Assembly (NCBI GenBank): GCA_963788635.1
Contig: CAWBHE010000014.1
Span: 15,405 to 79,404, forward strand
DNA length: 64,000 nt
Origin: an uncultured beta proteobacterium
GTDB taxonomy: Bacteria; Pseudomonadota; Gammaproteobacteria; Burkholderiales; Burkholderiaceae_C
Reading direction: 5' to 3'
The translations under genes were made by a program, and so were the position numbers. Positions 40,190-58,101 of the stretch are shown here, piece after piece (the first letter of the stretch is position 1; each line of letters begins with the position of its first letter). The notes under the pieces are model-generated. The model was not told the DNA's origin. It did no database searches and worked only from the letters and a program-made list of their open reading frames with translations.

Positions 40190-40201
40190 CGCCGAGCCCC
40201 G

Positions 40202-41461
40202 TCAGGCCGCGACGAACTCATTCCACTTCTGAACCATGTACGCGTTCTCGTCCATCACCGCGTTCCAGCAGGCGATCGCGCCCATCCGGGTCTCGTAGCT
40301 GCCGCCGTCGCGCACGCTGCCGGCCTTCGCGAGCAGGTCGCCGTGCGGCGACTTGATGTCCTGCGCCGCGGGCTTGCCTTCCATCCAGTACGCCCACTCG
40401 TAGGGCGCCATCTGGGCCTTCGCGGTCTCGAGCACGGCGCTGTAGTAGCCCTGGCGGTTCAGGTAGGCGCCGGCCCAGCCGTCGAGGAACCAGTTGATGA
40501 ACTCGTAGACCCCGTCGGCCTTGCGACCGTGGACGGTCTTGGGCACGCCGAAGCCCGAGGCCCAGGCGCGGTAGCCTTCCTTCAGCGGCTGGAAGGTGCA
40601 GGCGATGCCCTTCGTGCGCACCGCGGTCACGGCCGGCGACCACATCGACTGGATCACGACCTCGCCCGAGGCCATCAGGTTCACGCTCTCGTTGAAGTCC
40701 TTCCAGAGCGCGCGGAACTGGCCCGCCTTCTTCGCCTCGATCAGCGTCTTGATCGTCAGGTCGATCTCCGGCCGCGTCATGTTGCCCTTGTCCGGGTACT
40801 TGTGCAGGCCCAGCGCCTCGACGACCATCGCCGCGTCCATGATGCCGATCGACGGGATGTTCAGGATCGACGCGCGGCCCTTGAACTCCGGGTTCAGCAG
40901 CTCCTTCCAGCTCTCGATCGGGCGCTTGATCAGGTCCGGCCGGATGCCCAGCGTGTCGGCGTTGTAGACCGTCGGGATCAGCGTCATGTAGCGCGTCGGG
41001 TGCGTCGCGAACACCTTGGACGTCGGCGACTCGAGGTACATCACCTTCTTCGGCGCGGTGCCCTGGTCGCCGACCTTCTTGCCGTCGATCTCGCCCTTCG
41101 TGAACAGCGTCGTGATCTTGCCGGCGTTCTTGATCCGCGTCGTGTCGATGCCGAGCAGGTTGCCCGACGGGATGATCTTCTTCAGCGAGAAGAACTCGGT
41201 GTCGATCAGGTCGAACGAATTCGGCGCGGTGACGGCGCGCTTGGTCACGTCGTCGGTCGTGACCGGGATGTAGTCGATCGTGATCCCGGTGTCGGCCTTG
41301 AACTTGTCGGCGATCTCCTTGTCCTGGTTCACCGCGGTGCCGAGGTAGCGCAGCGTGATCTTCTCCTGCGCGTGGACGAACGGGAAACCCAGCGCGCCGC
41401 CCGCGGCCGCGGCGCCCTTCAGCAGGGTGCGGCGGGTGGCATTGGGCTTTGGATCGGACAT
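40202..41461 (-). CDS. Tat-exported ABC solute-binding protein (PotD/PotF-like fold)
   Basis: TRRTLLK twin-arginine signal; in operon with permeases and ATPase. Confidence 0.85.
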
Positions 41462-41518
41462 GTTCGGCTCCTGGAGGGGTTGCAGAGGAAGAAGGACGTG
41501 GAAACTCGGAAGACGGAT

Positions 41519-42519
41519 TCAGGCCAGCGCGTGCGCTTCGTCCGGCGCCCACGAGACGACCACCGTCTCGCCGGGCTGCAGCGGCTGGGCGTCGAATTGC
41601 GCGTCGGCCAGCGTCACGACCCACGGCGCGTCGACGGGGTCGGTCGGCGTCAGGCTGACCTGGACATGGGTGCCCTGGTACTCGACCGCGCGCACCGAGG
41701 CCCGGCGCGTGTCGTGGCCGGGCACCGAAGCGCCGCGCTGGAGCCGCAGCCGGTCCGAACGGACGGCGACGTTGCCGGCCCCGGTGGCGATCACGTTGTG
41801 CGCGCCGATGAAGCGGGCGACGAACTCGGAACGCGGTCGGTTGAACACCTCGCGCGGCGAGCCGGTCTGCTCGATGCGGCCCTGGTTCATCACGACGATC
41901 TGGTCGGCCAGCGCCATCGCCTCTTCCTGCGAATGCGTGACATGGACGAACGTGAATGCCCAGCTCCTGCTGCCAGCGCTTCAACTCGGCGCGCATCTGC
42001 ACGCGCAGGAAGGGGTCGAGCGCCGAGAGCGGCTCGTCGAGCAGCAGCACGCGCGGCTCGGTCATCAGCGCGCGCGCCAAGCGCCACGCGCTGCTGCTGG
42101 CCGCCCGACAGCTCGCCGGGCCGGCGCGCGAGATACGGCGTCATCGCGACGAGCTCGAGCAACTCCTTCGCGCGCGCATGCCGCTCGGCGACCGCCTTGC
42201 CGCGCATCTTCCAGCTGAAGGCGACGTTGTCGAGCACGTTCAGGTGCGGGAACAGCGCGTAGCTCTGGAACATCATCGCCGTGCCGCGGTCGGCCGCGGC
42301 GCTGTCGGTGATGTACTTGCCGCCGAGCAGGATCTGCCCGCTCGTCACCGACTCGTGGCCGGCGATCATGCGCAGCGTCGAGGTCTTGCCGCAGCCCGAA
42401 GGCCCGAGCAGGCAGCAGTAGCTGCCCGACGGGATGCTCAGGTCGATGCCGGCCACGGCCACCGTCTCGCCGTAGCGCTTTTCGAGTGCGGTGAGCACGA
42501 GCTTGGAGTCAACGACCAT
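41519..42519 (-). CDS. ABC ATPase (PotA-like, frameshifted)
   Basis: [22 protein letters not shown]; TOBE-like tail. Confidence 0.88.
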
Positions 42520-42530
42520 GCACCCCTGTA

Positions 42531-42546
42531 TGCAAAGCCTGTGCCA
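42531..42546 (-). promoter_or_regulatory. sigma54 promoter of the ABC operon
   Basis: minus strand TGGCACAGGCTTTGCA, canonical -24/-12. Confidence 0.8.
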
Positions 42547-42608
42547 CGAAGGGGCTTCGCGATGACGGGGCGCGAGACGCGCCGGCCGGCCGGATCCGAA
42601 CCCTGGCA

Positions 42609-42658
42609 CGCACCACGCCGGTCCGTCGTCGGCGATCGTGGCGCCCGCGTTTGGGGCG
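42609..42658. promoter_or_regulatory. putative tandem NtrC-type enhancer sites
   Basis: CGCACCACGCCGGTCCG (42609-42625) and CGCCCGCGTTTGGGGCG (42642-42658), 33 bp apart; resemble TGCACCA-N3-TGGTGCA. Confidence 0.45.
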
Positions 42659-42675
42659 TCCGCGCGGTCGGACGC

Positions 42676-42691
42676 CGGCGCGCGACTTGCA
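42676..42691 (+). promoter_or_regulatory. sigma54 promoter of the racemase gene
   Basis: CGGCGCGCGACTTGCA (GG-N10-GC). Confidence 0.6.
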
Positions 42692-42759
42692 ATCGCAGTG
42701 GCTTGTCCCGCGCAACGCGTCGATGCGACGCCGCCGCAGGACGCCATGGAGATGCGCGC

Positions 42760-43491
42760 ATGAAGATCCTCGTCGTCAACCCGAACACCAGCGCCGCGAT
42801 GACGGCCCGCATAGCCGCCGCCGCCGCCGCGGTCGCCGCGCCCGGCACCTTGGTGGACGCGGTGAATCCCAGCTTCGGTGCGCCGTCGATCGAGGACCAT
42901 CACGACGATGTCTGGGCCGCCGCCGGCGTGCTCGAGCAGGTGCGCCGCGGCCAGGCCGAAGGCGCCGACGCGTTCGTGATCGCCTGCTTCGGCGACCCCG
43001 GTCTGCACGCGGCGCGCGAGGTCGCCGACGGCCCGGTGATCGGCATCGCCGAAGCCGCGTTCCACGCCGCCAGCCTGCTCGCGACCGGGTTCTCGGTCGT
43101 CACGACGCTGACCCGGACCTGCGTGATCGCCGAACACCTGGTGCTTCAGTACGGCTTCGAGCGCAAGTGCCGCGGCATCCACGGCACCGACATCGCGGTG
43201 CTCGATCTGGAATGCGACGACGGCGCCACCGTCGAGCGCATCCACGACGTGGCGCGCCAGGCCCTCGAGCGCGACCGCAGCGGCGCGATCGTGCTCGGCT
43301 GCGCCGGCATGGCCGACCTGTGCCATACGCTGCAGCAGCGGCTGGGCGTGCCGGTGATCGACGGCGTCGGCGCCGCGGTCAAGTTCGCCGAGGCGCTGGT
43401 CGGCCTGGGTCTGCGCACCAGCAAGCGCGGCGACTACGCACCGCCGCTGGCCAAGCGCTACGCCGGGCTCGCGCAGCCCTTTTCGCCCTGA
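42760..43491 (+). CDS. hydantoin/allantoin racemase family
   Basis: MKILVVNPNT, IACFGDPGL, VLGCAGM (two catalytic Cys). Confidence 0.9.
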   Translation: MKILVVNPNTSAAMTARIAAAAAAVAAPGTLVDAVNPSFGAPSIEDHHDDVWAAAGVLEQVRRGQAEGADAFVIACFGDPGLHAAREVADGPVIGIAEAAFHAASLLATGFSVVTTLTRTCVIAEHLVLQYGFERKCRGIHGTDIAVLDLECDDGATVERIHDVARQALERDRSGAIVLGCAGMADLCHTLQQRLGVPVIDGVGAAVKFAEALVGLGLRTSKRGDYAPPLAKRYAGLAQPFSP

Positions 43492-43499
43492 GCGGCCGG

Positions 43500-43515
43500 C
43501 GGCATGCGACTTGCT
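43500..43515 (+). promoter_or_regulatory. internal sigma54 promoter
   Basis: CGGCATGCGACTTGCT (GG-N10-GC) in the short gap after the racemase. Confidence 0.6.
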
Positions 43516-43548
43516 GCCAGGCCAGGCGATGCCCGCCCGAGACCCGCC

Positions 43549-43956
43549 ATGCCCGATGAACCCGCCGAGATGACGCCGGCCACGCTGGTCGACGAGTACC
43601 TGCGCCGGCTGATGATTCCCGACCCGGTCGCGGCCAGCCGCCTGGTCGCGAGCGACCTGCGCATCCGCTTCACCGGCGGGCGCCTGATGCGCGAGCCGGC
43701 CGAATGTGCGGCCTTCAATGCCGCGCGCTACCGCTGGGTGAAGAAGCGCGTCGACGCGACCGAGACCGTCGCCGGTGGCACGCCCGAACACACGGTCGTC
43801 TACAGCCTGGGCAGCCTGTACGGCGAATGGCCGGACGGCACCGCGTTCGAAGGCAACCGCTACGTCGACCGCTATGTCGTTCGCCACGGACGCATCGCGC
43901 AGATGGACGTCTGGAACGACAGCGCCGAATGGCTGCTCGTGCGCGCCGGGCTTTGA
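43549..43956 (+). CDS. NTF2/SnoaL-like protein
   Basis: YRWVKK, GSLYGEWPDGTAFEGNRYVDRY, DVWNDSAE; start could be 43570. Confidence 0.75.
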   Translation: MPDEPAEMTPATLVDEYLRRLMIPDPVAASRLVASDLRIRFTGGRLMREPAECAAFNAARYRWVKKRVDATETVAGGTPEHTVVYSLGSLYGEWPDGTAFEGNRYVDRYVVRHGRIAQMDVWNDSAEWLLVRAGL

Positions 43957-43969
43957 GCGCGGGACGATC

Positions 43970-44893
43970 ATGACGGCACGCTACCTCGGCCCGCTGCCCG
44001 GCCATGGGCGCTTCGACTACCGGCCGATCACGCGCCGGCCCGACTACCGCTGGCCCGGCGGCGCCGGGCTCGCGGTCTACCTCGGCTTCAACGTCGAGCA
44101 TTTCGCTTTCGGCGAGGGCCTGGGCGCCGAGATCGGCCCGGCGTCGCCGCAGCCCGACGTGCTGAACTACAGCTGGCGCGAGTACGGCAACCGCGTCGGC
44201 GCCTGGCGCTGCCTGGAGCTGTTCGACCGCCTCGGCCTGCCGGCCGCCGCGATCATCAACACCGCGCTCTACACGCATGCCCCGGAGCTGGTTGCGGCGA
44301 TCGTCGCGCGCGGCGACGAACTCGTCGGCCACGGGCACAGCAACGCCGAACGCCAGGGCGGGCTGGCCGAGAGCGCCGAGCGCGAACTGCTGCTGCATTG
44401 CCGCGCCCGCATCGTCGAGCAAGGCCACGCGGCGCCGACGGGCTGGCTGTCGCCGTGGATCTCGGAGAGCCTGCACACGCCCGACCTGCTCGCCGAGACC
44501 GGCTACCGCTACACGCTGAACTGGTGCCACGACGACCAGCCGTTGCGCATGCGCACGCGCAGCGGCCGGCCGCTGTGGGCGGTTCCGTACCCGCAGGAGC
44601 TGAACGACATCCCGATGATCGTCGCGCGCCGGATGGACGCGAAGGACTTCGCGCAGATGATCGTCGACCAGTTCGACGAGATGCTCGAACAGTCGCGCCA
44701 GCAGCCGCTGGTGATGGGCATCGCCTTGCACCCCTACCTGGTCGGCCAGCCTTACCGGCTGCGCCATCTGCGGCGCGCGCTCGAGCACATCGCCGCGGTG
44801 CGCGACCGTGGCGGCCTGTGGTTCACGACGCCGGGCGCGATCTGTTCCCATCTCGACGCGCTCGCGGCCGACGCACCCGGAGACTTCGAATGA
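43970..44893 (+). CDS. polysaccharide deacetylase family (PuuE-related)
   Basis: NYSWREYGNRVG, ELVGHG, GWLSPW, ELND, ALHPYLVGQP. Confidence 0.85.
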   Translation: MTARYLGPLPGHGRFDYRPITRRPDYRWPGGAGLAVYLGFNVEHFAFGEGLGAEIGPASPQPDVLNYSWREYGNRVGAWRCLELFDRLGLPAAAIINTALYTHAPELVAAIVARGDELVGHGHSNAERQGGLAESAERELLLHCRARIVEQGHAAPTGWLSPWISESLHTPDLLAETGYRYTLNWCHDDQPLRMRTRSGRPLWAVPYPQELNDIPMIVARRMDAKDFAQMIVDQFDEMLEQSRQQPLVMGIALHPYLVGQPYRLRHLRRALEHIAAVRDRGGLWFTTPGAICSHLDALAADAPGDFE

Positions 44894-46081
44894 ACTTCGC
44901 GATCGACGACGAGGTCGGCGCCTGGGTGCCGCATGGCCGCTTCGTCATCGAAGGCCGGCCCGGCGGCGCGCTCGCCGGGCTGCGCTTCGCCGCCAAGGAC
45001 TTGTTCGACGTCGCCGGCCACCCGACCGGGGCCGGCAATCCAACCTGGCTGGCGACGCACCCGGCGCCGGCGCGGCACAGCGCGGTCGTCGCGCGGCTGC
45101 TCGACGCCGGCGCGACGCTGGCGGGCAAGGTCGTCACCGACGAGCTGGCCTACAGCCTGCACGGCGACAACCTGCATTACGGCGCACCGATCAATGCGCG
45201 CGCGCCCCGGCACGTGACCGGCGGCTCGTCCAGCGGCTCGGCCGCGGCGGTGGCCGCCGGCCTGGTGGACTTCGCGCTCGGCACCGACACCGGCGGCTCG
45301 ACGCGCGTGCCGGCGAGCTACTGCGGGCTCTGGGGCCTGCGCAGCACGCAGGGCCTCGTCCCGGTCGACGGCCTCGTGCCGCTGCACCCGAGCTTCGACA
45401 CCGTGACCTGGCTCGCGCAGGACGCGGTCACCTTCGAACGGGTCGCGTGCGCGCTCCTGCCCGAGCGCCCCTTCACGCCGCGCCGGGTGCTGGTGCCGGC
45501 CGATGCCTGGGACGCTGGCCGATGCCGGGTTCGCGTCACCGCTGCAGCGCGTGCGCGACGCGCTGGCCGCGCGGCTGGACGCGACGCCCGAGTCGCTGCG
45601 CGTCGCCGGCGACCAGACCCTCGACGCCTGGCGCCAGACCTACGCCACCGCCGGCGCGTTCGAGGGCTGGCAGGTTCACGGTGCGTGGATCCGCGCCCAC
45701 CGGCCCGTCTTCGGCCCCGCCATCGCCGCGCGCTGGCAGGCGGCAAGCCAGGTCGACGATGCCGCCGCGGCCGCGGCATGGGCCACGGTGCAGCGTGTTC
45801 GCGCACGGGTGCGGGCGCTGCTCGGCGACGACGGCGTGGCGGTGCTGCCGTCGGCGGCCAGCGTCGCGCCGCGCCGCGATGCCGCCGCCGCGGCGGTGGA
45901 CGCGGTGAGACTGCGCACGATGGCGATCACCTGCATCGCCGGGCTCGCCGGGCTGCCGCAGGTGAGCCTCCCGCTGAGCGCGCCGGACGGCCTGCCGCTG
46001 GGCGTTTCGCTGCTCGGGCCGGCCGGCAGCGACCTCGCGCTGATCCGGCTCGCCGCGGCGTTGCACGCGGCGCTCGTCTGA
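44890..46081 (+). CDS. amidase-signature enzyme (frameshift near 45510)
   Basis: AKDLFD, GGSSSGSAAAVA, GTDTGGSTRVPASYCG. Confidence 0.88.
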
Positions 46082-46103
46082 CGCGGGCGCGGGTCCGGGG
46101 CGC

Positions 46104-47102
46104 TCAGCCGGCCGTCACCGGCCGGCCCTGCTCGCGGCGCGCGGCGACGAAGGCGTCGAAGGCTTCGGCGCTGGTCTTCGCCGGCCGGTAGCCGAAGTCC
46201 TGCTTCAGCGCGGTGTTCAGCAGCACCGGGCGGTAGCGCAGGAAGTCCAGCTGCTCGGGCCCGTAGCGCGTCAGCCCGAGCGCCGAGCCGACGCCGAGCG
46301 CGGCCTTGAGCAGCCCGGCGGGCAGCGACAGCAGCGGCTTGCCGAGCCGGCGCGCGATCTCGGCCAGCGGCAGCGCGCCGTCGCCGGCGAGGTTGAAGCA
46401 TCCGGCGCGGCGCGTGCGCAGCGCGTGCACGATGGCGCCGGTGACGTCCTCGTCCCAGACGAAGACGAAAGGGCTGGCGCTGCCGCGGATCGCGAGCAGG
46501 CGTGGCTTCTCGAACAGCGCCGTGATCTGGTTGTCGACCCGCTCGCCCAGGATGGTGCCGATGCGCAGCACCGTTTGCGCCAGCGCCGGGTGGCTTGCGC
46601 GGGCTTGCGCGAGCATCTCCTCGACCAGCCGCTTGTGGTGCGCGTAGGCGAAGGCCTCGTTGCCGCGCAGCGCATCGGTCTCGCGCAGCCAGTCCGGGTT
46701 GTCGGCGTGGTAGCCGTAGGCCGCGCCGCTGGAACTGACGACGAGGTGCTGCACGCCTTGTGCGATGCAGGCGTCGAGAACGTTCTTCGTGCCGAGCACG
46801 TCGACCGAGTACTCGAACTCGCGGCTCGAACCCTTGCCCGGCGTGACGATCGAGGCCAGGTGGACGACGCTGTCGATGCCGTGCTCGGCCAGCGTCGCGC
46901 CGATCGCCGCGTCGCGCACGTCCTGCACGAGGTAGCTCACGCCGGGCAGCCGGCGCGCCAGGGGCACCTCGCGCACGTCGGTGGCGACCAGTGCGGCGGG
47001 TCGAGCCCCGCCCGCCAGCGCGGCGAGCAGGCTGCGGCCGAGGAAACCGTCGGCGCCGGTGACGAGCACGCGGCGCGTCGCGAGCGGGTCATTGCTGGTC
47101 AT
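46104..47102 (-). CDS. extended SDR / NAD-dependent epimerase-dehydratase
   Basis: TGADGFLG, HLAS, SSGAAYG, YAHHK. Confidence 0.85.
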   Translation of the reverse strand: MTSNDPLATRRVLVTGADGFLGRSLLAALAGGARPAALVATDVREVPLARRLPGVSYLVQDVRDAAIGATLAEHGIDSVVHLASIVTPGKGSSREFEYSVDVLGTKNVLDACIAQGVQHLVVSSSGAAYGYHADNPDWLRETDALRGNEAFAYAHHKRLVEEMLAQARASHPALAQTVLRIGTILGERVDNQITALFEKPRLLAIRGSASPFVFVWDEDVTGAIVHALRTRRAGCFNLAGDGALPLAEIARRLGKPLLSLPAGLLKAALGVGSALGLTRYGPEQLDFLRYRPVLLNTALKQDFGYRPAKTSAEAFDAFVAARREQGRPVTAG

Positions 47103-48024
47103 GCCGTGCTCCGCGCGGGCGCGCCGACCGGTTCGCGCCGCGCCCACCAGCCGGCCAACACGAGGCCGGCGATGATGTCCCAGAAGCCCCAGACGCCGGC
47201 CACGACGGCCATGCCGCCGAGGCCACCGAAGAAGCCGAAGATCAGCACCAGCCCGAGCCCGGCGTTGCGGATGCCGACCTCGATCGCGACCGCGCGCCGG
47301 TCGTAGTCGGACGAGGCCGGTGGCGCGCGCGCAGGCCCAGCCGGTGGCGAAGGCGAGCGCGTCCTGCAGCACCACGGCGAGCAGCACCAGCCCCACGTAG
47401 TCGAGGAAGAAGCGCCAGTTGCCGGCGATCGCGCCGACGATGAAGCCGATCAGGCAGACCAGGCCGAAGCCGGCGCGCGGGCTTGACCAGCCGCGCGGCC
47501 AGGCGCGGCAGCCGCTCGGCGCAGAGGATGCCGAGCACGAAGGGCGCTCCGATGATGACGACGATGTGGCCCGTCATCTCGAGCGGGTCGAGCGCGATGC
47601 GGCGCAGCAGCGGCGCGGCGGTCGGGTGCAGGCCGCCCCAGAACGCGAAGTTGATCGGCATCAGCACGATCGCGAGCGCGTTCGAGATCGCCGTCATCGA
47701 CACCGACAGCGCGACGTTGCCGCGCGCGCGGTGGGTCAGGATGTTGCTGATGTTGCCCGGCGGGCAGCAGGCGACGAGCAGCATGCCCAGCGCGATGCTG
47801 GGCGCCGGCCGCAGCAGCAGCGTGAGCGCGAAGCTCACCGCCGGCAGCACGATGAACTGCGCCGCGATGCCGACCGCCATCGCGCCGGGCATGCGCAGCA
47901 CGCGCCGGAAGTCGGCGAGCCGGGTGTCGAGCGCGATGCCGAACATCAGCAGCCCGAGCACGCCGTTGAGCGCGACCAGCGACGCGGGGCTGAAGTTCAG
48001 GCGGATCTCGTCGACGGGCAGCAT
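47099..48024 (-). CDS. bile acid:sodium symporter family transporter (frameshifted)
   Basis: MFGIAL, QFIVLPA, CPPGNISN, GNVALSVSMT, EVGIRNAGL across frames. Confidence 0.85.
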
Positions 48025-48056
48025 CGGGGCTTTCGGTGGGGCGCGAGCGAGGCGAA

Positions 48057-49367
48057 TCAGGCGAGGGCCGCCGCGGCCTTGCGCACCGCGGCGCGGTAGA
48101 CGTCCTTGTTGACGTAGTAGGCCATGCGTTCGAGCTTCAGGTAGCGGATGCCGCCCGACAGGTCGGGCGCCGGCCCGGCCTTCGCGCGGCGCAGCGCGTC
48201 GGCCTTCGGCGCACCTTCGGCCGCGGCCTTGAAGAAGCGCGCGACCAGCTCGGCCTGCTCGTAGCGGCCCTGCCAGCCGATGCCGCTGGCCTCGATCATG
48301 CCCAGCACGGCCAGGTTGTCGAAGCGCTTCGAGAGGATGTTCAGGTACAGCTGCGGCGCCATGCCCTGCCAGTCGAGCAGCTCGCGCGCGATGAACGGGT
48401 AGTGCAGCCGGTAGCCGGTGGCGCAGAGCACGAGGTCGTAGTCCTGCGCGCTGCCGTCCTTGAAGTGAACGGTGTGGCCGTCGAGGCGCGCGATGTCGGG
48501 CCGGGCGCGGATGTCGCCATGGCCCAGGTGGTGCAGCACGAGCGAGTTGACGACCGGGTGCGACTCGTACATCCGGTAGTCGGGCCGCGGCAGCCCGAAG
48601 CGCGCCGGGTCGCCGGTGAACCAGCGCAGCACGACGGCGTCGACGCGCTGCTTCAGCCACGACGGCAGCCGGATCCGGCCGCCCAGCGTGTCGGCCGGCT
48701 TGCCGAACATGTACTTGGGCACGAAGTAGTAGCCGCGCCGCACCGACAGGTCCACGCGCTCGGCCTGGTGCACCGCGTCGACCGCGATGTCGCAGCCCGA
48801 GTTGCCGGCCCCCACCACCAGCACGCGCTTGGCGCGGAACTGGCTCGCGTCCTTGTAGGCCGCGGTGTGCAGCAGCTCGCCGTCGAAGCGGCCTTCGAAG
48901 CGCGGCAGGTTGGGCTCGGCCAGCGTGCCGTTGGCGATCACGACGCCGGCGAACTCGGCGCCATCGCGGCGGCCGTCGGCGTCGACCCATTCGACCCGCC
49001 ACGACGGCGACGCGCCGTCGCCGAGCGGCGCGATGCGTTCGACGCGGGCGCCGAAGCGGAAGTGCGCGCGCAGGCCGAAGTGGCTGGCGTAGTCGAGGAA
49101 GTACTGGCGCAGCTCGCGCTGGCTCGGGTAGTCGGCCACCGCGTCGGCCATCGGGAACTCGGCGAACTCGGTCGTGCGCTTGCTCGAGATCAGGTGCGCC
49201 GAGCGGTAGACCGTGCTGCGCGGGTTGTCGATGTTCCACAGCCCGCCGACGTCGGTGTGCGCCTCGAAGCCCTGGAACGGGAGGCCGAGCTTCTGCAGGT
49301 TGCGCGCCGCGGCCAGGCCGCAGGGGCCGGCGCCGATGACGGCGATCTGGGTTCGGGTGTCGGTCAT
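48057..49367 (-). CDS. flavin-containing monooxygenase
   Basis: GAGPCG, GGLW, FDGELLHTAAYK (FMO motif), GAGNSG, ATGY. Confidence 0.9.
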   Translation of the reverse strand: MTDTRTQIAVIGAGPCGLAAARNLQKLGLPFQGFEAHTDVGGLWNIDNPRSTVYRSAHLISSKRTTEFAEFPMADAVADYPSQRELRQYFLDYASHFGLRAHFRFGARVERIAPLGDGASPSWRVEWVDADGRRDGAEFAGVVIANGTLAEPNLPRFEGRFDGELLHTAAYKDASQFRAKRVLVVGAGNSGCDIAVDAVHQAERVDLSVRRGYYFVPKYMFGKPADTLGGRIRLPSWLKQRVDAVVLRWFTGDPARFGLPRPDYRMYESHPVVNSLVLHHLGHGDIRARPDIARLDGHTVHFKDGSAQDYDLVLCATGYRLHYPFIARELLDWQGMAPQLYLNILSKRFDNLAVLGMIEASGIGWQGRYEQAELVARFFKAAAEGAPKADALRRAKAGPAPDLSGGIRYLKLERMAYYVNKDVYRAAVRKAAAALA

Positions 49368-49393
49368 GGGTGGGGGGTCACGCTCGTGGGACA

Positions 49394-50212
49394 TCAATGC
49401 TCGTCGCGCGACGGCAGGCCCGGAATCGCGCTCGCCCCGGCCTCGCCCCAGCGCGGCTTGCGCGGCTGGCCGAGCAGGATGCGGTCGTGCCAGGCGTCGG
49501 GCAGCCAGCCGAGCGCGTGCGCGAGCCAGCCCATGCGCCGCGGCAGCACGATCTGCGTGCGGCCGCGCGCGACGCCGGCGAGCAGCGCGCGCGCCGCGGC
49601 GTCGGGCTCCATCAGCCCCGGCATCGCGAAGCGGTTGCCGGCCGTCAGCGGCGTGCGCAGGTAGCCGGGGCTCACGGTGTGCACGCTCAGGCCGCTGCCG
49701 CGCAGTTCGGCGCGCAGGCTCTCCAGGTAGCGGATCAGCCCGCCCTTGCTGGCGCAGTACGCGCCGTTGCCCGGCATGCCGCGCCAGCCCGCGAGGCTGG
49801 CCACGCCGACCAGCGCGCCGTGGCGCCGCGCGCGCATCGCCGCGACGAAGGGCTGGAAGGTCGTGGCCACGCCGAGCAGGTTGATCTCGAGCATGCGGCG
49901 CATCACGGCCAGGTCGTCGCGCTGCGCGGTGTCGAAGCCGCCCGCGACGCCGGCGTTCGCCAGCACCAGGTCCGGCACGCCGGCGCGCGCGGTCCAGTCG
50001 GCCGCGAGCGCCTGCCAGGCGGCGGCGTCGGCGACGTCGGGCGTGTAGACCGCGCAGCGGCCCGGGGCCAGCGCCGCCAGGCCTTCGAGCACCGGGCGCT
50101 GCAGGCCGACGAGCGCGACCGCGGCGCCTTGCGCGATCAGCTCGCGCGCGAGCGCCTGGCCGAGGCCGCCGCAGGCGCCCGTGAGCACGGCGTTCTTGAT
50201 CGTGAGGGCCAT
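49394..50212 (-). CDS. short-chain dehydrogenase/reductase
   Basis: TGACGGLG, ANAG, YCASK, PGYLRT. Confidence 0.9.
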   Translation of the reverse strand: MALTIKNAVLTGACGGLGQALARELIAQGAAVALVGLQRPVLEGLAALAPGRCAVYTPDVADAAAWQALAADWTARAGVPDLVLANAGVAGGFDTAQRDDLAVMRRMLEINLLGVATTFQPFVAAMRARRHGALVGVASLAGWRGMPGNGAYCASKGGLIRYLESLRAELRGSGLSVHTVSPGYLRTPLTAGNRFAMPGLMEPDAAARALLAGVARGRTQIVLPRRMGWLAHALGWLPDAWHDRILLGQPRKPRWGEAGASAIPGLPSRDEH

Positions 50213-50302
50213 CGAGTCGGTGGGTGGGTTGGGCGGCGAGCTTAGCCAGGGCCGCCTATCATCTCGAAAAAATCGACGGTTTCGTCTCGAATTCAGAGAT
50301 TC

Positions 50303-51055
50303 ATGAGCAAGCCTGCCCCCAGCCTGCGCCTGTTCGAGCTGCTGGAACTGCTCTGCGCCGACGGCCGGCCGTTCAGCCTGGCCGACGCGGTGCGCCTGAG
50401 CGGCTGGCCCAAGCCCAGCGTGCACCGGATGCTGGGCCAGCTCGAGGCGGGCGCGCTGCTCGCACGCGAGCCCGGCGGCCGGCTCTACGCCGCGGCACCG
50501 CGCCTGCTGCGCCTGGCCGAGAAGCTGCTCGACGCCGGCATGCCGCAGGGCGTGCGCCACGCGGTGCTGCGCCAGCTGGTCGCCGACATCGGCGAGAGCT
50601 GCAACCTGACCGCGCTCGCCGGCGCCGAGGTGGTCTACCTGGACCGCGTCGAATCGGCGTTTCCGCTGCGCATGGAGTTGCGCCCCGGCACGCGCGTGCC
50701 GCTGCACTGCTCGGCCAGCGGCAAGCTGTTCCTGGCCTACATGGCGCCGGCGCAGCGCGGCGCGTTGCTCGAGCGGCTGCCGCTGACGCGGCACACCGCG
50801 GCGACGCTGACCCGGCGCGACGCGCTCGAAGCCGAGCTCGAGCGCATCGTCGCCCAGGGCCATGCGGTCGATGCCGAGGAATACGTCGACGGCCTGGTCT
50901 GCGTGGCGGTGCCGGTGGCGGCGCCGGACCGGCGCGCGCTGCGCTGCGCCGTCGCGCTGCAGGCGCCGGCCGCGCGCATGCCGCTGGCCAAGGCCTTGCA
51001 GCAGGTGCCGCGGCTGAACGAGGCCGCGACCGCGCTCGCGCGCACGCTGGCCTGA
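50303..51055 (+). CDS. IclR family regulator
   Basis: N-terminal HTH PKPSVHRML, PLHCSASGK; divergent from SDR-FMO-BASS. Confidence 0.9.
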   Translation: MSKPAPSLRLFELLELLCADGRPFSLADAVRLSGWPKPSVHRMLGQLEAGALLAREPGGRLYAAAPRLLRLAEKLLDAGMPQGVRHAVLRQLVADIGESCNLTALAGAEVVYLDRVESAFPLRMELRPGTRVPLHCSASGKLFLAYMAPAQRGALLERLPLTRHTAATLTRRDALEAELERIVAQGHAVDAEEYVDGLVCVAVPVAAPDRRALRCAVALQAPAARMPLAKALQQVPRLNEAATALARTLA

Positions 51056-51219
51056 GCGCGTCGCGCGCGGCCCAGCCTGCCACGGCTTCGTGTCGGCGGC
51101 GTGACGGTTGGATCTGCTTACCGATGTTGGGGATCACGCGATCAAGTTCACAAACCGACATCGCGTTGACTCGCGGCCCGGCTAGATTGGGCTCGTTGCC
51201 ACCGCCGAGGAGCCGCACC

Positions 51220-51480
51220 GTGGACCACTATCACGTCATCAGCGTCGGATCGAACGGGCACGCGCTGGCGCTGCAGGACGCGCGCGGCCGCTGCCATGTG
51301 GCGACGCTGCTCGCGAATTCCCCGCCGTCGTGGCCGACGCTGGTCGGGCCGGCGCCGTCGCGCGGCTTCCAGGTGCTGCGCGCCCAGGACAGCGGGCACC
51401 TGTTCCGCCTGATCTTCGAGCAGGTCGACTGCGACCGGCGCGAACTGCTCGAGCACCTGGACTCGATCGCCGCGGACTGA
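51220..51480 (+). CDS. hypothetical protein (86 aa)
   Basis: GAGGAG SD before GTG; protein-like sequence ALQDARGRCHVA...FRLIFEQVDC. Confidence 0.6.
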   Translation: MDHYHVISVGSNGHALALQDARGRCHVATLLANSPPSWPTLVGPAPSRGFQVLRAQDSGHLFRLIFEQVDCDRRELLEHLDSIAAD

Positions 51481-51807
51481 GCGCGCGCCGCCCGCCGGTG
51501 CCGCGCCGGTGCGGCGCCACGGGCCGCCGCATCCCGGCGCAGGGCCGCAGCGCGGCGACCCGGCCCTTGTGGTTTCAAACGGTTCGCGCCGGCGATCGAG
51601 CGCGCGCCGCTGCGGCTTGACGCCAGCCACCGTGGCGGGCGAAAGTCCGCCGGCCGGGCTGGGGGTGGCATCGGGGCTGTCGATGGGCTCGTTCATGCCG
51701 AACGATTCAGGCCGCCCATTTCGGCCGGGGCCTGCCCGTCGGGCGCCAAATGGGGTGAGTCCGGAGAGGGGCGATGATCAGTGCGGCCAGAATGCTGGAA
51801 TAGCATG

Positions 51808-51853
51808 GGCCAACCGGCTCATCGGCCGCTATTCGGCCCATTTCACGTTAGGC
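51808..51853 (+). mobile_element. degenerate, shortened attC-like site
   Basis: GGCCAAC...GTTAGGC followed by CGCAC and an ATG 10 nt later; only 46 bp. Confidence 0.45.
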
Positions 51854-51862
51854 CGCACCAAG

Positions 51863-52677
51863 ATGACCACCATGCCTCATGCTCGCTCAGCGATCATGCC
51901 GGCGCGAGCGACGTCGAACGGTACCGTCGGCGTCTTCGGCCTGACAGACGGCATGGCTCACGACGGAAACGCTGAATCTCGACGGCACTTCGAGAGTCGT
52001 CCAGTGAACAGCCATCTGAGCTTTCACAACGCAGCTTGGTCGAGTCACAACTTCTGGCGACATGAACGCGTCTGAACTACCAAAGTCAAATCAGGCGCAC
52101 CAAGAATCACGCTCCTTCGTATCACTCCAGGGTTACGCTTGTCCACGCGAACGAAACGGTATGGTGCGCTCAAGTTGGTCAGCAGCCCCAATGACTTCAT
52201 GCATGATGTAACGCATGATCGTTGGCGCAGGTCCAGCCTCAGCATGGAGATGCTCGATCTCGTAGCGCCAGAAGCGACAGGCACAAGCTGAGTCAGGCGT
52301 GCCGTTTGCGCTCTTCTGCGGATCGCCGCCATGGTTCACGGACTTGTCTGGTCTCTATGTTCATCAAGTACTTCGAGCCCACACGCGATCAAGTCAGATG
52401 CACGAAGTGATGGGTCGGTCGCTCTCACTTGGCCCGATGCATCTGGAACTTCGGGCGAACTGTTCGGAACGCCCTCACACACCGCGGCGTTGTCGAAATG
52501 CGAAATCCAACTGCCGCGCCTGTCACTTGGCGCGGCATCACGCTGGCTCCCGTCAACAATGGCCAAGACCTTCTCACGCCGCAGCATCTCTTGGGCGTTG
52601 GCGATCTAATTGCATTGCTGCTGGAGCTGGACGCGAGTGTGGCCTCTCAAGTCACTCCACCCAAGTGGTTGATTTGA
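51863..52677 (+). pseudogene. low-GC interrupted ORF, probable gene cassette
   Basis: line 52081-52140 is 50% GC; protein-like fragments SMFIKYFEP and WNFGRTVRNALTHRG...GDLIALLLELD broken by stops and frameshifts. Confidence 0.5.
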
Positions 52678-52733
52678 AAGTCGCTTTCTCTGAGTGACCT
52701 TCGGGCGATTTGCGGCCCAGGGCCCGATTACCT

Positions 52734-52857
52734 CGCTAACCCCTTCGATCGAAGGTGCCACGAGCAGGCCATGCCGTCCGCGCGGCGCCTTGGCCCATCG
52801 TGCGCCGCACGAGCGGCGCGTCCTGCCGCGACGCCCGGCTTTGCTCGAACGTTGGGC
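52734..52857 (+). mobile_element. attC-like site (124 bp)
   Basis: CGCTAAC (R'')...CTCGAAC-GTTGGGC (R'); long internal stem GCAGG..GCCG..CGCGGCGC / GCGCCGC..CGGC..CCTGC. Confidence 0.7.
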
Positions 52858-52885
52858 CCCACGATCCAACCCTCTCACGGCACGA

Positions 52886-53227
52886 TCAGGATTCCGGGTC
52901 GAACATGATTTCGCGGACCTCCTGCGCGCACCGACAGGCTTCGGCGATCCTGGCCGCCCAGGCGAGCGCCTCTTCGCGCGAGGGCACCTCGATGATGGAG
53001 AACCCGCCGACGACCGCCTTCGTCTCCACGGCAGGGCCCTCCGTGATGGTCCCGTCCGGCGCCACGACGCTCGATTGCTGCCGTTGCAGCCCGCCGCCGA
53101 AGATCCAGACCCCAGCGGCCTTGGCAGCCCGCACCACCGCGTGCGCCGACTCGCCCACCGCCGGCCAGTCCTGCTCGGGAATGTGGTCCATCGAGCCGTC
53201 GTCGAACGAAATCAGATACCGGGGCAT
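52886..53227 (-). CDS. YciI family protein
   Basis: ITEGP..ETK..VGGFSIIEV.SREEALAWA, EVRE. Confidence 0.85.
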   Translation of the reverse strand: MPRYLISFDDGSMDHIPEQDWPAVGESAHAVVRAAKAAGVWIFGGGLQRQQSSVVAPDGTITEGPAVETKAVVGGFSIIEVPSREEALAWAARIAEACRCAQEVREIMFDPES

Positions 53228-53323
53228 GGCGTCGTTCCTTCTCTCGTGCGGCAGCGATCGGCCGCCCCTCGATCTTGCTACGAGGATGCACACGCGCTCG
53301 GAGAAACGCTGGCTTGTTGCCGG

Positions 53324-53382
53324 GCCCAACCCCCCGGTCGAGCGGGCTGGCGCCGGCAGGCCGCTCGGTTCGAACGTCAGGC
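53324..53382 (+). mobile_element. attC-like site (59 bp), GTT core changed to GTC
   Basis: GCCCAAC...CGAGCGG/CCGCTCG stem...TCGAAC-GTCAGGC-CTCAC. Confidence 0.6.
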
Positions 53383-53455
53383 CTCACGCGCCGCGCCGTG
53401 CCGCACTTCGATCAAGGCCAAGGCCCATACTGGCCACCCTCAACCGGAGAGCGTC

Positions 53456-53698
53456 ATGAGCGATTCCGTCGCGCCACTGGTCCTTGACTTGCTGGAGTGG
53501 ATCGGCGCTCGGCCTCGCCCTTACCGAGAGGTCATGGACGCCTGGCGCACGTCCTGTCCTCGCCTCCCGGTCTGGGAAACCGCCAACGAACAGGGCTTGC
53601 TCGAGCACAGGCACATACCGGGCCACGAAGCAACGGTGGCTGTGTCCGAGCAAGGCCGTGCGCTTCTCGCCCAGCGCCGCACGCGCGTCGTGGCCTGA
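53456..53698 (+). CDS. small hypothetical protein (80 aa, winged-helix-like)
   Basis: GGAGAG SD; LVLDLLEW...Y.EVMDAWRTSCPRLPVWE. Confidence 0.75.
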   Translation: MSDSVAPLVLDLLEWIGARPRPYREVMDAWRTSCPRLPVWETANEQGLLEHRHIPGHEATVAVSEQGRALLAQRRTRVVA

Positions 53699-53766
53699 GC
53701 GCCAATGCGCTGGGTACCGCGTTCTTCGTGAGGCTGTTGGGGCCTCTGCATCGAACCCGGCCGGAG

Positions 53767-53800
53767 AAAGAAAGCCCGCTTCCCATGCGAGAAGCGGGCC
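53767..53800 (-). terminator. rho-independent terminator downstream of tRNA-Arg
   Basis: minus strand GCCCGCTTCTCGCATGGGAAGCGGGC followed by TTTCTTT. Confidence 0.75.
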
Positions 53801-53835
53801 CCACGATCTTCGGCGCTCTTTCGTGAGCGCGCGTT

Positions 53836-53910
53836 TGGCGCCCCCGGCGGGAATCGAACCCACATCTGAGACTTAGGAGGTCCCCGTTCTATCCATTGAA
53901 CTACGGCGGC
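53836..53910 (-). tRNA. tRNA-Arg (CCT)
   Basis: 75-nt cloverleaf, anticodon loop CTCCTAA, GGTTCGATTCC T-arm, encoded CCA. Confidence 0.93.
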
Positions 53911-56900
53911 TGGGGCGCTGATTTTGGCACGGGGGTCGGGCGCGGTGCCGCGCTCTTCCAGGTCCAGATCACGTCGACCGCGTTCTCCGCGCCCGACTGC
54001 GCGCGCAGCGTGAAGCGTTGCGCCAGCCGGTAGACGAGTTGCCAGGTGCCGGCGGTGGCATTGACGCCGCGCTCGTAGCCGACGTACCAGCGGCGCGAGA
54101 GCTGCTTGCCCAGGCTGACCACGGTCTGCTGCACGCCGGTGTCGTTGTTCTGGCTCACCGACAAGTCGTCCAGCCCGAGGCTGTGGATCAGCGCGTCGGT
54201 GGGCGTGCCGCCTTCGCCGGCCAGCAGCGCGACGGCGGCGCGCTGCAGCAGCGCGGTGTCGCTGCGGCCCAGGCCGTCGGGCGCGCGGCCCAGCAGCAGC
54301 CAGGACAGCTTGTCCGCGTCGCTGAGGTCGGCGTCGGAGTACAGGCGCACGCGCGGCGTGAGCAGGTTGCCGGTGATCGCGACGCCGACGTCGATGTCGG
54401 TGTTCGGCCGCAGCGCCAGGATGTCCAGGCGCGGGTTGTCGACCGCGCCGCTGAACGCGACGACGCCGCGCGCGATGTCCAGCTTCTGACCGTAGGCCTG
54501 GTAGGTGCCGCCGTCGGTGCTGACCTGGCCTTGCACCGCGAGCCGGCCGCCCGGGGTGGTGATGCGCAGCCGGCCGCGCAGCGCGGTGTCCAGGCCGCGG
54601 CCGCGCACGCGCAGCTTGTCGCCCAGGTCGACCTCGACGGCCACCGCCACGTTGCGCCGCGGGGGCGGTGCTGCGGCGGCCGCGGCGTCGGCCTTCAGAG
54701 CGGCCTGTTCCGGACCTTGCACGACGACGTCGTCGTCGAGCGAGGGGGCGTCGCCGTGGCTGATGTCGAACAGCCCCTCGTCGACCTTGAAGCCGCCGTC
54801 GAGCTTGATCTCGTCGGCCCGCAGCCCGAGCTGGGCGCTGCCGCTGACGATGAGCTGGCGGTCGATGCGGCCGAGCACGCGGAAGCGCTCGGCGTCGACC
54901 TTCAGCGTCGCGTTCGGCGTGCTGCCGAACGTGGCGCCGCCGCTCAGCGTCAGCGTGCCGTCGCCGCCGCGCAGCGTGAAGCGTTCGATGCGCGCCGCCG
55001 CGCCTTCGAGCTTGATCGCCAAGCTGCCCTGGTCCAGGCTCACCCCTTGCAGCACGTTGCGCACGGTGATCCCGCTGCCCTGCAGCTCGCCGGTGTATTC
55101 GGGCGCGCCGAAGCGGCCGCCGAGGCCGGCGCGGGTGCGCAGTTCGCCGCCGATCTGCCAGCCCGGCGGCACCCAGTTGCGCCAGATGCTCAGGTTGGCC
55201 ACATGCGCCTGCAGCACGCCGTCGATCGGTGCGTCCGCCCCGGGCCAGCGGTTCTGCGGCGTGGTGTGGGCGCGCAAGGTGCCGTCGATCTCGCCGACCG
55301 AGCGGCCGGCCAGTGCCTGCGTGAACACCCATTCGCCGTCGTGTGCGGTGATCGCCAGGCGCAGCTGGGTCAGGCCGAGCCGCTGGGTCGCATGGGCGGT
55401 GTCGATCTGCAGATCGCCGTCCTGCCGCTCGAGCACCAGCTCGGCGTCGAACTTCTCGGCCGCCCGGATGTCGACGTGCCCGGCGAGCGTCAGGTCGCCG
55501 CTCCACCCCATCGTCGGCTGCGTGCGCGCGAGCAGCGGTGCGACGGCGAAAGGCGCGAGGTCGGCGCGCAGCACGATGTTCGGCCGCGGGCCGCGCAGGT
55601 CGACATGCACCGCGTCCCAGCGCAACGCGACCTCGCCCGCGGCGCGCAGCTGGCCGGGGTCGGCCTGGATGTCGAGCAGCTCGCCGCCGGCGCCGAACTG
55701 CAGCGTGGTGTTCAGCCCGTCGGCCTGCAGCCAGTCGGCCGCGGGTGCGCCCGCGAGCGTGTGACCGTCCCAGGTGCCGACGGCCAGGTGCGCGATGTGG
55801 CCGCGCCATCGGCCGCCGCCGGCGGGGTCGCCGGACCAGCTTCCGTCCGCCTCGAGCTGCGCGCGCGTGCCCGAGCCGGGCTTCATCGCGAACAGCGCTT
55901 CGGCCGCGGGCGGCGGCGTGATCGGCAGCGCGGCCGACAGCAGCAGCCGGTGCCGGGACAGCGTGCCGCTCAGTTCGGCGCTCAGCTGCTGGGCGCGCTG
56001 GCGCCCGAGGTGCACGCTGCCGAGCTGGGCCGTGAGCTGCAGCGGGCGCTCGCCGTCGCCGCCGGTGTCGAGGTTCCAGCGCACGCTGCCGGTCTGGACG
56101 CCCAGATCGCCGGCTTCGAGCCGGGCCAGCGTCGCCTGTCCCTCGGTGCGCAGCGCCGGCCAGCGGCCGATCGCGTCGAGCCTTGCGCTGGCCTGGCCGC
56201 TGCGCGGCGCCCAGGCGGCGGTGGCCGGCGACAACAGCGCCAGCGGGCCGAGGCGGCCGAGTTCGGGCGCGTCGAGCACGAGCTGCCAGCGGTCGGCCGC
56301 ACCGCTGCCGTTGGCGTCGCCGCGACCGTCGACCGACAGCGTGTTGCCGGCGATCTGCAGCGTACCGTGCGCGCTGGTCGCGCCCTGCGTCTGGCCGAGC
56401 GTGACATCCAGCGCCAGCGGCAGGCCCGCGATGAGCGAGTCGTGCACGTGCAGCCGGCCCTCGCCGGCCAGGCCTTGCAGCAAGGCCAGCGGCGCGAGTC
56501 GGCGCGCTTCGACCGGCAGCCGCACCGCGAGTCGCCAGTCGGCCGAGATCCGGTGCGGACCGCGCCGCCACGCCGAGCCCGCTTCGCCCGGCCACCAGGG
56601 CAGGGGGTCGAAGTCGCTCAGGCTGCCGTCGGATTGCATCGACCAGCGGTCGCCTGCGCCGCGCTCGGCGCTGGCCGTCCCTTGCGCGACCGCGCGGCCG
56701 GCACTCGCGCGCAGCCGGCGCAGATCGATGTGCGTGGCGTCGGCAAGGACGTCGATCGCCAGTTGCACCGGCTGCGGCGCGGCGTCGAGCCGGCCGTCGA
56801 GGGTGGACTTCAGCTCGACGGCCAGCGGCGCCGCAGCGGCGCTGCCGTCGGGCGAGGGCAGGCCCTGCAGCGTCAGCGCGAGCGGGCCGGACAGCGACAT

Positions 56901-58101
56901 CGCCGCAGCGCGGCCGTCGATCCGCTGCGGCCGCACGTCGGCCAGCGTGCTGGCCAGCTGCAGCGTGTTCTTCAGCCAATGCCCGCTGCCCTGCCAGGTG
57001 CCGGCGGCGGCGTTCGCGCCGGCCCCGCCGAGCGCGAGCTCGAAGTGGCGCAGCTCGACGCGGTCGCGCGCCTCGGCTCGCGCTGCCAGCTCGAGCGCGA
57101 CGTGGCGCAGCGGCAGCCGGCCTTCGTCCCAGCGGCCGGGGTCGGCGTTGTCCAGCGTCACCGACGCGGTGATCGGCGCCTGCAGTGCGCTGCTGTGCAC
57201 TTGCACCTGACCGCTGAGCCGGGTCTGCGGCAAGCTGCTGGCCAGCGCGGCGAGGTCCAGCGCCTGCGTGCTGGCGCTCAGCGCGGCCAGCGGCCAGGCC
57301 GCGAAGGGCTGCAGCTCGGCGTGCACGTCGGCGGCCGGGGTGGCATGGCCGGCGCGCGCGATGCCGCGCAGGCGCGCGTCCAGCGTCGTCCGCTCCAGCG
57401 TGCCGCCGGCGGTGAGCGTGGCGTCGAAGGCCTCGCCGCTGAGCGGCGCGACATGCCACTGCGCCGCCAGCGCGAACGGGCGGGCGGCGGCGATGCGGGC
57501 GTCGCCGTCGACGCGGACCTTGTCCCAGGTCAGGTGCAGCGCGGCGATGCGGTGGCCGTTCGCGCCACCGAGCGCCACGCGCGCGCCGAGGTCGGTGACC
57601 GGCGCGAACTGGTCGACGCGCAGGCGGCCGATCTGCAGCGCGGCGACGTCGATGCGCGCCGGCAGGTTCAGCGACGCCGGCAGGCTGGTCGGTGGCGCGT
57701 TGGCGACCGCGGGGCCGGTCTGCAGCTCGACGTCCTGCACCGCCAGGCGATCGGCCTGCAGGCTGAACCAGGCGCCGGGCTGCGGGCGCCAGCGCCAGAC
57801 CAGGCCGTCGGCCTGCAGCCCGGTCAGGGTCAGCGACTTGCTGCCGCCGGCCCATTCGACCTTCAGCCCTTGCAGCGCGAAGCGCGGGCCGAGCAGCGCG
57901 CCGCTGCACGCCGCGGACCTGCACGCCCGGCAGCCGGTCGAGCAGCCAGCGCGTGCCGTCTTCGCTGCGCAGCAGCCAGAGCGCGCCGCCGGCGAGTCCG
58001 GCCGCGACGAGCACCATCAGTGCGAGCACCAGCGCGGTCGGCAGCAGCAGGCGCAGCGCGCTGCGCAGCGGGCGGGCAGGGGGGTGCGGCGCGCTGTTCA
58101 T
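53901..58101 (-). CDS. tamB: translocation and assembly module TamB (frameshift near 57900)
   Basis: N-terminal TM, long beta-rich body, C-terminal YQAYGQKL...DNPRLDILA...GKQLSRRWYVGYE; follows tamA. Confidence 0.88.

Follow-up and report, generated by a model that had tools for sequence, protein, structure and literature searches.

In a live integron, the integrase IntI folds the bottom strand of the recombination site (attC) and cuts it in the AAC triplet (GTT on the top strand), excising and re-inserting gene cassettes. The present work is centred on a region at 51.8-53.8 kb of a stretch of 64,000 nucleotides from an uncultured beta proteobacterium (assembly GCA_963788635.1, contig CAWBHE010000014.1, positions 15,405 to 79,404 of the forward strand), the whole of which is called here the window. 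In an earlier note on this DNA the region had been described as three co-oriented attC sites without integrase beside a gene for tRNA-Arg(CCT). The analysis reported here indicates that it is probably a fossil integron-type array of gene cassettes, of the Sphaerotilaceae kind, an example of which is the remnant on a plasmid of Methylibium petroleiphilum PM1.

Known cassette arrays and the locus in the window

Each attC site is delimited by R'' (RYYYAAC) on one side and R' (GTTRRRY) on the other, two inverse core sites that contain the conserved AAC/GTT triplet. The attC sites are further characterised by R and L boxes and by extrahelical bases opposite the AAC triplet of the bottom strand, AAC being the only conserved stretch (Nivina et al. 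2016). A cluster of attC sites lacking an integron integrase (CALIN) requires that a minimum of two of these sites share one strand at a distance below 4 kb and that no integron integrase is present; loss of intI, rearrangement and insertion at secondary sites have been proposed as its origins (Cury et al. 2016, PMC4889954).

The region of the window resembles a CALIN in several respects: it probably contains at least two co-oriented attC-type sites less than 4 kb apart, neither an integrase nor a recognisable intI pseudogene is present within 10 kb, its cassettes are unrelated to resistance genes, and the published origins fit it. A distance of 467 bp on the plus strand separates the two sites concerned (named here site 3 and site 2'), of which site 2' passes only a local search; a third junction is recognised by a 20-base word described below. 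On the other hand, the region differs from the clusters described in that it comprises one secure and one probable site, both called by home-made models. Besides, these sites are degenerate (GTC core, broken L box), one of the genes is inverted and another is interrupted by a stop codon. The locus is a small, degenerate CALIN-like array; genomic fossils of this kind are known and rather ordinary.

An integron remnant of the same family as the organism of the window is available for comparison. An attC from a metagenome-assembled genome (MAG; locus L012) matched by blastn the plasmid RPME01 of Methylibium petroleiphilum PM1 (NC_008826, locus L068), where an IntI fragment of 92 amino acids, 55% identical to IntI1, is encoded at 10618-10896 and is followed by four co-oriented attC sites at 11251-13108 on the plus strand. 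This locus is a true integron remnant, with cassettes of 751, 549 and 480 bp. The window shares with it the attC type (GCCTAAC-CCCTC-CATCGAGC...GCTCATG-TCGAAC-GTTAGGC), the cassette start CCCAC after R', similar cassette sizes and the lack of an intact integrase. Nevertheless, the Methylibium array keeps its IntI fragment and four near-perfect attC sites, in which 6-7 of the 7 positions of the R and L boxes are paired, whereas no IntI fragment is found in the window, and its sites score 4-17 bits with the class 1 model R1 (see below) against 47-60 bits for those of the plasmid.

One sequence type comprises the four Methylibium sites, that of L012 and the attC belonging to the aac(6')-Ib cassette, namely GCCTAAC CCCTC CATCGAGC ... 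GCTCATG TC(G/A)AAC GTTAGGC. The last of these (aacA4-type, class 1; L056 6220-6291, minus strand) resembles the window in its 7-5-8...7-6-7 geometry, in the C that bulges out of L'' and in having TCAAAC/TCGAAC as the spacer that precedes R'. It is, however, a mobile, active and clinical site with a fully paired L box, whereas the window sites are chromosomal and degenerate and flank genes that are not involved in resistance. As an observation in its own right, the aac(6')-Ib attC agrees with one Methylibium attC (L068 12551-12628, plus strand) in 64 of 71 aligned bases and with the L012 attC in 65 of 70, a resemblance which hints that the aac(6')-Ib recombination site may belong to a Sphaerotilaceae-type attC family.

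The last known systems to be considered are the P4-type islands integrated at tRNA genes. As in these islands, the array lies directly 3' of a tRNA, its GC content is lower and homology breaks at the 3' end of the tRNA; it differs from them in lacking both an integrase and any directly repeated copy of the 3' end of the tRNA. The window as it now stands holds neither a tRNA-integrated P4-type island, both the integrase and the 3'-end repeat being absent, nor a complete integron with intI, an adjacent attI and the promoter Pc, intI being absent and attI not having been specifically searched for.

Cassette junctions and attC-type sites

An independent trace of an array was obtained with a junction word, TCGAACGTTAGGCCCCACAA, which consists of 20 bases of the Methylibium attC PM1_2 (the spacer before R', R' itself and the initial 7 bases of the cassette that follows). 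With a cut-off of 15 matching bases out of 20, the word is found exactly three times in the window, at 51841 (15 matches), 52845 (18) and 53370 (16), always on the plus strand, and the three positions coincide with the right ends of the sites proposed earlier. In 473,618 bp of DNA from relatives, searched on both strands (947 kb of strand), there was one match at this cut-off. All three right ends are therefore homologues of cassette junctions, although site 1 has no recognisable hairpin. The junctions that survive are co-oriented and read G/TTAGGC at 51847, G/TTGGGC at 52851 and G/TCAGGC at 53376, and the kinship of the three sites with one another and with real integron cassette junctions is far beyond chance.

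Several details of the earlier description agree with the sequence: the quoted sites are present, with lengths of 46, 124 and 59 bp, C-N-CAC follows all three, and TCGAAC precedes R' in sites 2 and 3. Related to this, TCGAACGT occurs on the plus strand of the window only at 52845 and 53370; this shared right-end motif is real, but its own chance estimate is circular, the motif having been derived from the same sites. The claim that the sites are bounded by RYYYAAC and GTTRRRY did not hold, none of the three fitting at both ends: R'' is GGCCAAC in site 1 and CGCTAAC in site 2 as first delimited, and R' is GTCAGGC in site 3. Genuine reference sites also deviate in places, such as GGTAGGC in PM1_4 and TTCTAAC in gcuF. 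The quoted sites are not three intact attC sites.

Two covariance models of attC were constructed from real sites, none of them taken from the window. For the first (R1), plasmid R100 was the starting point of an IntI1 search for class 1 integrons, and 16 attC sites were extracted by box geometry from the 12 arrays obtained. These align at both ends, with R'' of 7 bases, a spacer of 5, L'' of 8 with the fourth base bulged, a variable centre, L' of 7, a spacer of 5-6 and R' of 7. The smr site of locus L055 was excluded from this set because an IS110-family transposase (1279-2322), directly downstream of the smr cassette, is found at the expected place of the attC. The second model (R2) was trained on six sites, namely the four from Methylibium, the one from L012 and that of aac(6')-Ib. 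Taxon-specific attC models are an established approach, and the 11 modelled taxa named in the available part of the source do not include Burkholderiales (Ghaly et al. 2021).

Searched with R2, the whole window gives site 3 as its best match, with 30.1 bits (E about 6e-6), followed by matches of 18.9 and 16.4 bits in unrelated genes. Site 2' reaches 14.5 bits, the fourth rank in the window (E 0.13), and an E-value of 0.005 in a local search of 2.5 kb, in which site 1 obtains 3.6 bits. Over 509,878 bases taken from relatives and other loci, the top score was 17.3 bits once true attC sites and their reverse strands are set aside, two of these reverse strands reaching 22.0 and 21.4 bits; in a further control of 92,323 bases with the filters off it was 17.1 bits. 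Two genomes share, at orthologous positions of an arginase-family gene, the strongest false match of R2 (18.9 and 17.1 bits): 33991-34051 (plus strand) of the window and 18328-18388 (minus strand) of locus L002. Conserved coding sequence can thus mimic the model.

R1, applied to both strands of the whole window with the filters off, returned 15 matches at E <= 10. Site 3 is again the first of them (16.9 bits, E 0.032), and the runners-up, with 14.5 and 12.7 bits, are inside genes. With this model 7.8 bits are obtained for the minus strand of site 3, 7.3 for site 2' and 4.4-5.2 for site 1, while noise in 45 loci of relatives extends up to 15.4 bits, with one outlier of 43.1 bits (L012 14257-14335). 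The check by attC covariance model that the earlier note had proposed, carried out here with home-made models, thus places site 3 above the background and leaves site 2' borderline and site 1 unsupported.

Site 3 (53324-53382, plus strand, 59 bp) is a degenerate attC and the best match of the window with both models. Its left arm consists of R'' GCCCAAC, the spacer CCCCC and L'' GGTCGAGC with a bulged C; after a centre of 19 nt, the right arm is formed by L' GCTCGGT, the spacer TCGAAC and R' GTCAGGC. The spacing is exactly 7-5-8...7-6-7. Since R' is GTCAGGC, only 5 of the 7 positions of the R box are paired, and in the L box there are four Watson-Crick pairs, two G-T pairs and one mismatch, the three outer pairs being non-Watson-Crick. 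The two ends of the site match PM1_2 in 18 of 22 bases each, which may be compared with 18 and 17 for the true attC PM1_1. Besides, R'' GCCCAAC is the exact complement of R' GTTGGGC at 52851, which opens the unit that site 3 closes, as expected if the unit was once a circular cassette. The probability of forming the hairpin of R and L boxes (pfold) is 0.24 for the bottom strand and 2e-8 for the top strand; in 10 real sites taken as reference it is 0.001-0.6, values that are approximate because only the pairs able to form were enforced. This asymmetry, together with 30.1 bits on the plus strand against less than 8 bits on the minus strand with R2, makes the assignment to the plus strand clear. 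Site 3 lies between divergent gene starts.

The second site had been described as 124 bp long (52734-52857) with a long stem. This extent was rejected because, in the canonical geometry, the left end at 52734 makes no L box with the right end; neither model returned that left end, and the fold was not significant against shuffled sequences. The attC geometry fits only with a left end at 52793, which gives site 2' (52793-52857, plus strand, 65 bp), a probable attC made up of R'' GCCCATC, a spacer of 7 nt, L'' GCACGAGC with a bulged C, L' GCTTTGC, the spacer TCGAAC and R' GTTGGGC. The R box pairs at 6 of 7 positions, and the L box has six Watson-Crick pairs and one G-T pair. In both arms the outer triplet of the L box is GCA/TGC in place of the CAT/ATG of the clade, R'' has ATC where AAC is expected, and the junction agrees with PM1_2 in 18 of 20 bases. 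The bottom-strand pfold is 0.03. The original left end (52734-52757, plus strand) bears a loose likeness to the left half of an attC, and its status is uncertain.

At site 1 (51808-51853, plus strand) only the right end (51841-51860, with the core GTTAGGC at 51847-51853) is supported, and 4 of the 7 positions of the L box are paired. The heptamer GTTAGGC, which is the R' of the clade, occurs once on the plus strand of the window, at this position, where the GC content begins to drop. The boxes R''/R' are accordingly GGCCAAC/GTTAGGC in site 1, GCCCATC/GTTGGGC in site 2' and GCCCAAC/GTCAGGC in site 3. Of the three attC sites first proposed, then, the third is clear though degenerate, the second is probable once redefined, and the first does not stand as a whole attC.

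Units, genes and surroundings

Measured from junction to junction, unit A has 1004 bp and unit B 525 bp. The gene content and the spacing of one gene between sites are as they had been described, with a low-GC unit followed by yciI. The body of unit A (51854-52792, plus strand) has a GC content of 58% and its open reading frames (ORFs) have no Pfam or NCBIfam family. The orphan-type small gene ORF-A (52357-52677, plus strand), co-oriented with the sites, contains an in-frame TGA at 52408-52410, and an intact shorter ORF begins at 52429. In 5.8 billion proteins its sole homologue is a metagenome protein of 94 amino acids (P0001, 63% identity), and the alignment between them continues across the in-frame TGA; ORF-A is best read as an orphan-type gene in decay.

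Unit B carries yciI (52886-53227, minus strand), which encodes a protein of 113 amino acids with a match to Pfam PF03795 (E 2.5e-8). YciI has 7120 homologues, and the best 120 of the 7120 are 83-99% identical to it. These 120 include proteins of MAGs labelled Terriglobales and Casimicrobiaceae, a uniformity that is unusual for a small gene across such labels. The near identity of YciI in MAGs labelled as different phyla fits a gene that would be moving horizontally. The copies found on plasmids are only 51-55% identical, and a comparison of the 2.1-kb region with plasmids gave short gene-internal matches only. After site 3, orf80 (53456-53698, plus strand, 80 codons), taken from the ORF listing and co-oriented with the sites, encodes a small conserved hypothetical protein for which Pfam and NCBIfam searches gave no family; its homologues (56-62%) are located in replicons of Roseomonas and Burkholderia, in ordinary contexts and not beside yciI.

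The absence of a tyrosine recombinase from the window was borne out. No match at E <= 1 was obtained in the whole window by tblastn with three queries (IntI1, the IntI fragment of Methylibium and a P4-type integrase), and PF00589 was found in none of the 103 six-frame ORFs of at least 100 amino acids in 41.8-64 kb, that is, within 10 kb on either side. A simple scan of 51.4-53.95 kb revealed no sigma-70-like promoter.

The overall GC content of the window is 71%, and it is lower at the array, with 58-68% against 71-75%. In the composition profile the drop from about 74% to about 58% coincides with site 1, and the stretch of 52-62% GC at about 51.8-52.7 kb has no family match. Upstream there is a gene for an IclR regulator (50303-51055, plus strand) and a small ORF (orf86, 51220-51480, plus strand), the latter separated from the low-GC stretch by a GC-rich spacer of about 330 bp. 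On the other side are the tRNA-Arg(CCT) gene (53836-53910, minus strand; ARAGORN, Rfam tRNA 59.5 bits), a terminator-like hairpin with a T-rich tail downstream of it (53775-53800, minus strand) and tamB (53901-57740, minus strand).

An exact repeat of 13 nt, GGGCCCCACGATC, is located on the plus strand at 52854-52866 and 53799-53811. The first copy is at the start of unit B, overlapping the cassette-start motif, and the second is in the region of the tRNA terminator hairpin, 25 nt from the 3' end of the tRNA. Its interpretation as an extra junction was dropped: by our own estimate, chance alone would give about 0.6 exact 13-mers in a stretch of 3.2 kb, and a second, unrelated 13-mer repeat is present. 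The larger block at 38330-53835, discussed below, is mostly of normal GC content and carries genes for an ABC transporter, a hydantoin racemase, an amidase, an epimerase, an SBF transporter, an FMO, an SDR and the IclR regulator. The amidase family PF01425 is matched at 43957-46188 and 45407-46078 (plus strand), with profile positions 41-214 in one frame and 328-444 in another, which suggests that the amidase gene is frameshifted or otherwise disrupted.

Origin, decay and alternative explanations

Within the genome collection the nearest relative is another species, Rubrivivax sp. SCN 70-15, with 89% nucleotide identity over tamB. In all 35 loci of relatives in which the tRNA is detectable, the homology with the window ends at the 3' end of tRNA-Arg(CCT), as seen by blastn and alignment, and IclR, orf86, YciI and orf80 are encoded in none of the 52 loci of relatives. 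In one of them (L005) the tRNA is directly followed by a homologue of window positions 38067-38327, the block of 15.5 kb at 38330-53835 being absent, which means that the whole of 38.3-53.8 kb is variable. In two others (L002 and L003) this place is occupied by unrelated genes, about 3 kb in all.

A P4-type tyrosine integrase is encoded about 50-180 bp after tRNA-Arg(CCT) in 11 of the 52 loci (L008, L012, L013, L014, L015, L023, L025, L030, L037, L038 and L042), the match in L038 being in two pieces, with a possible frameshift. This frequency makes the tRNA linked to tamB a recurrent hotspot of island integration in the family. In L012, the true attC already mentioned (14257-14335, minus strand, 43.1 bits with R1) is 2.8 kb past the same tRNA-Arg, next to the P4-type integrase gene, and has the same orientation relative to the tRNA as the sites of the window. 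No remnants of the L012 island genes were found in the window.

From these comparisons with relatives, the array would most likely have arrived on a genomic island integrated at tRNA-Arg(CCT), whose integrase was lost later. Three co-oriented cassette junctions would have survived from it, the last two as right ends of attC hairpin sites, along with cassette-sized units of one small gene each: the orphan gene with a premature stop, the inverted yciI and orf80. With no integrase, attI or Pc, the genes of these units must presumably use promoters of their own. The sites appear to have drifted, site 3 to GTC and three non-Watson-Crick pairs in the L box, site 2' to ATC in R'' and a spacer of 7 nt, and site 1 to a junction end only; with such drifted sites the array is most likely immobile or barely mobilisable. 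The earlier note had also suggested mobilisation by an IntI encoded elsewhere. This seems less likely, as GTC for GTT in site 3 and ATC for AAC in R'' of site 2' would speak against it. The core of that note, an integrase-less and decaying integron-type array beside tRNA-Arg(CCT), is sustained by site 3, site 2', the three junctions, the cassette-sized units and the absence of integrase.

Several points weigh against this reading. The assignment to CALIN was made with home-made models, and the effective sequence number of R2 is 2.2, which makes its E-values rough. By the class 1 model R1 alone site 3 is marginal, its E-value of 0.03 in the window rising to 0.27 over the 538 kb pooled for that search. 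The 14.5 bits of site 2' fall inside the noise of R2, with four unrelated matches of 16.4-18.9 bits in 156 kb. Site 1 as a whole attC is recognised by neither model (3.6-5.2 bits), and its bottom-strand pfold (3e-5) is under those of all 10 real sites. No strict pair RYYYAAC..GTTRRRY exists in 50-55 kb. Single-strand DNA folds of the six strands were not more stable than shuffled sequences (z between -0.6 and -2.0, the minus strand of site 3 standing at +1.3); the z-score of fold energy against shuffles was discarded as a criterion. The orientation of yciI is opposite to that of the sites, which is not so for the cassette genes annotated in the Methylibium array. A fourth site after orf80 was rejected, no model match above 5.6 bits being found in 53383-53835. 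Nowhere in the window is the 3' end of the tRNA repeated over more than 12 nt, as would mark an island boundary. Finally, the sample of relatives comprises 52 loci, with the tRNA detectable in 35 of them and no genome of the same species.

Among the alternative explanations, it is unlikely that the locus is a CALIN that still functions, its sites being recombinogenic and the yciI and ORF-A units being open to excision and transfer by an IntI encoded elsewhere in the genome or brought in on a plasmid. The bottom-strand pfold values of site 3 and site 2' are in the range of real sites, site 2' retains GTT, the AAC triplet has no importance in itself but gives micro-homology (Nivina et al. 2016), and it has been proposed that CALIN cassettes may be mobilised in trans (Cury et al. 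2016, PMC4889954). However, the altered triplets and the non-Watson-Crick outer pairs of site 3, the 7-nt spacer of site 2', the lack of foldable structure in site 1 and the lack of an IntI in the window are difficult to reconcile with continued activity, and the premature stop of ORF-A points to decay.

A single orphan attC, inserted with one cassette (for instance at a secondary site) or left behind, with sites 1 and 2 as chance look-alikes, is quite improbable. It would explain why only site 3 clears the noise in both models, which 14.5 bits for site 2' and 3.6 bits for site 1 do not. Insertion at secondary sites is one of the origins given for CALIN, and lone attC sites have been discarded as possible false positives (Cury et al. 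2016, PMC4889954). Nevertheless, the only positions in the window matched by TCGAACGTTAGGCCCCACAA are the right ends of all three sites, the L box of site 2' is almost complete and includes the bulged C, the junction of that site agrees in 18 of 20 bases with PM1_2, and R'' of site 3 complements the R' at 52851 exactly, all of which favours an array over a lone site.

It is very improbable that the sites are ordinary GC-rich intergenic hairpins (terminators or regulatory palindromes) with a chance likeness to attC, since, although the fold z-scores are not significant, the strict consensus is unmet, the Rfam scan returned the tRNA as its sole match with no attC-like match, and site 2' is flanked by the ends of convergent genes, as a terminator might well be, site 3 scores 30.1 bits with R2 against noise of at most 18.9 bits in about 666 kb searched, its geometry and strand asymmetry are correct, its position between divergent gene starts is not that of a terminator, and three clustered and co-oriented matches of TCGAACGTTAGGCCCCACAA stand against one in 947 kb of control strand.

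The region at 51.8-53.8 kb, taken as the fossil of a cassette array, shows that cassette relics can be recognised in a genome of 71% GC by means of attC models from the host's own clade, even though no site passes the textbook consensus. It may also serve as one small example of how a CALIN originates, likely as the cargo of a tRNA-targeting island stranded after the loss of the island integrase. A wider scenario can be formulated, in which P4-type islands at tRNA-Arg(CCT) ferry cassette arrays between Sphaerotilaceae-like Burkholderiales genomes, the window holds stranded cargo whose drifted sites (GTC core, 46-bp mini-site) would still be used at a low rate by IntI in trans, and the clinical aac(6')-Ib cassette would owe its attC to this type; taken as a whole it is unlikely. 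The array is without resistance or virulence content, and it is an ordinary genomic fossil. Possibly more useful than the array itself are the island hotspot at the tRNA and a Sphaerotilaceae attC type that closely resembles the attC of aac(6')-Ib.

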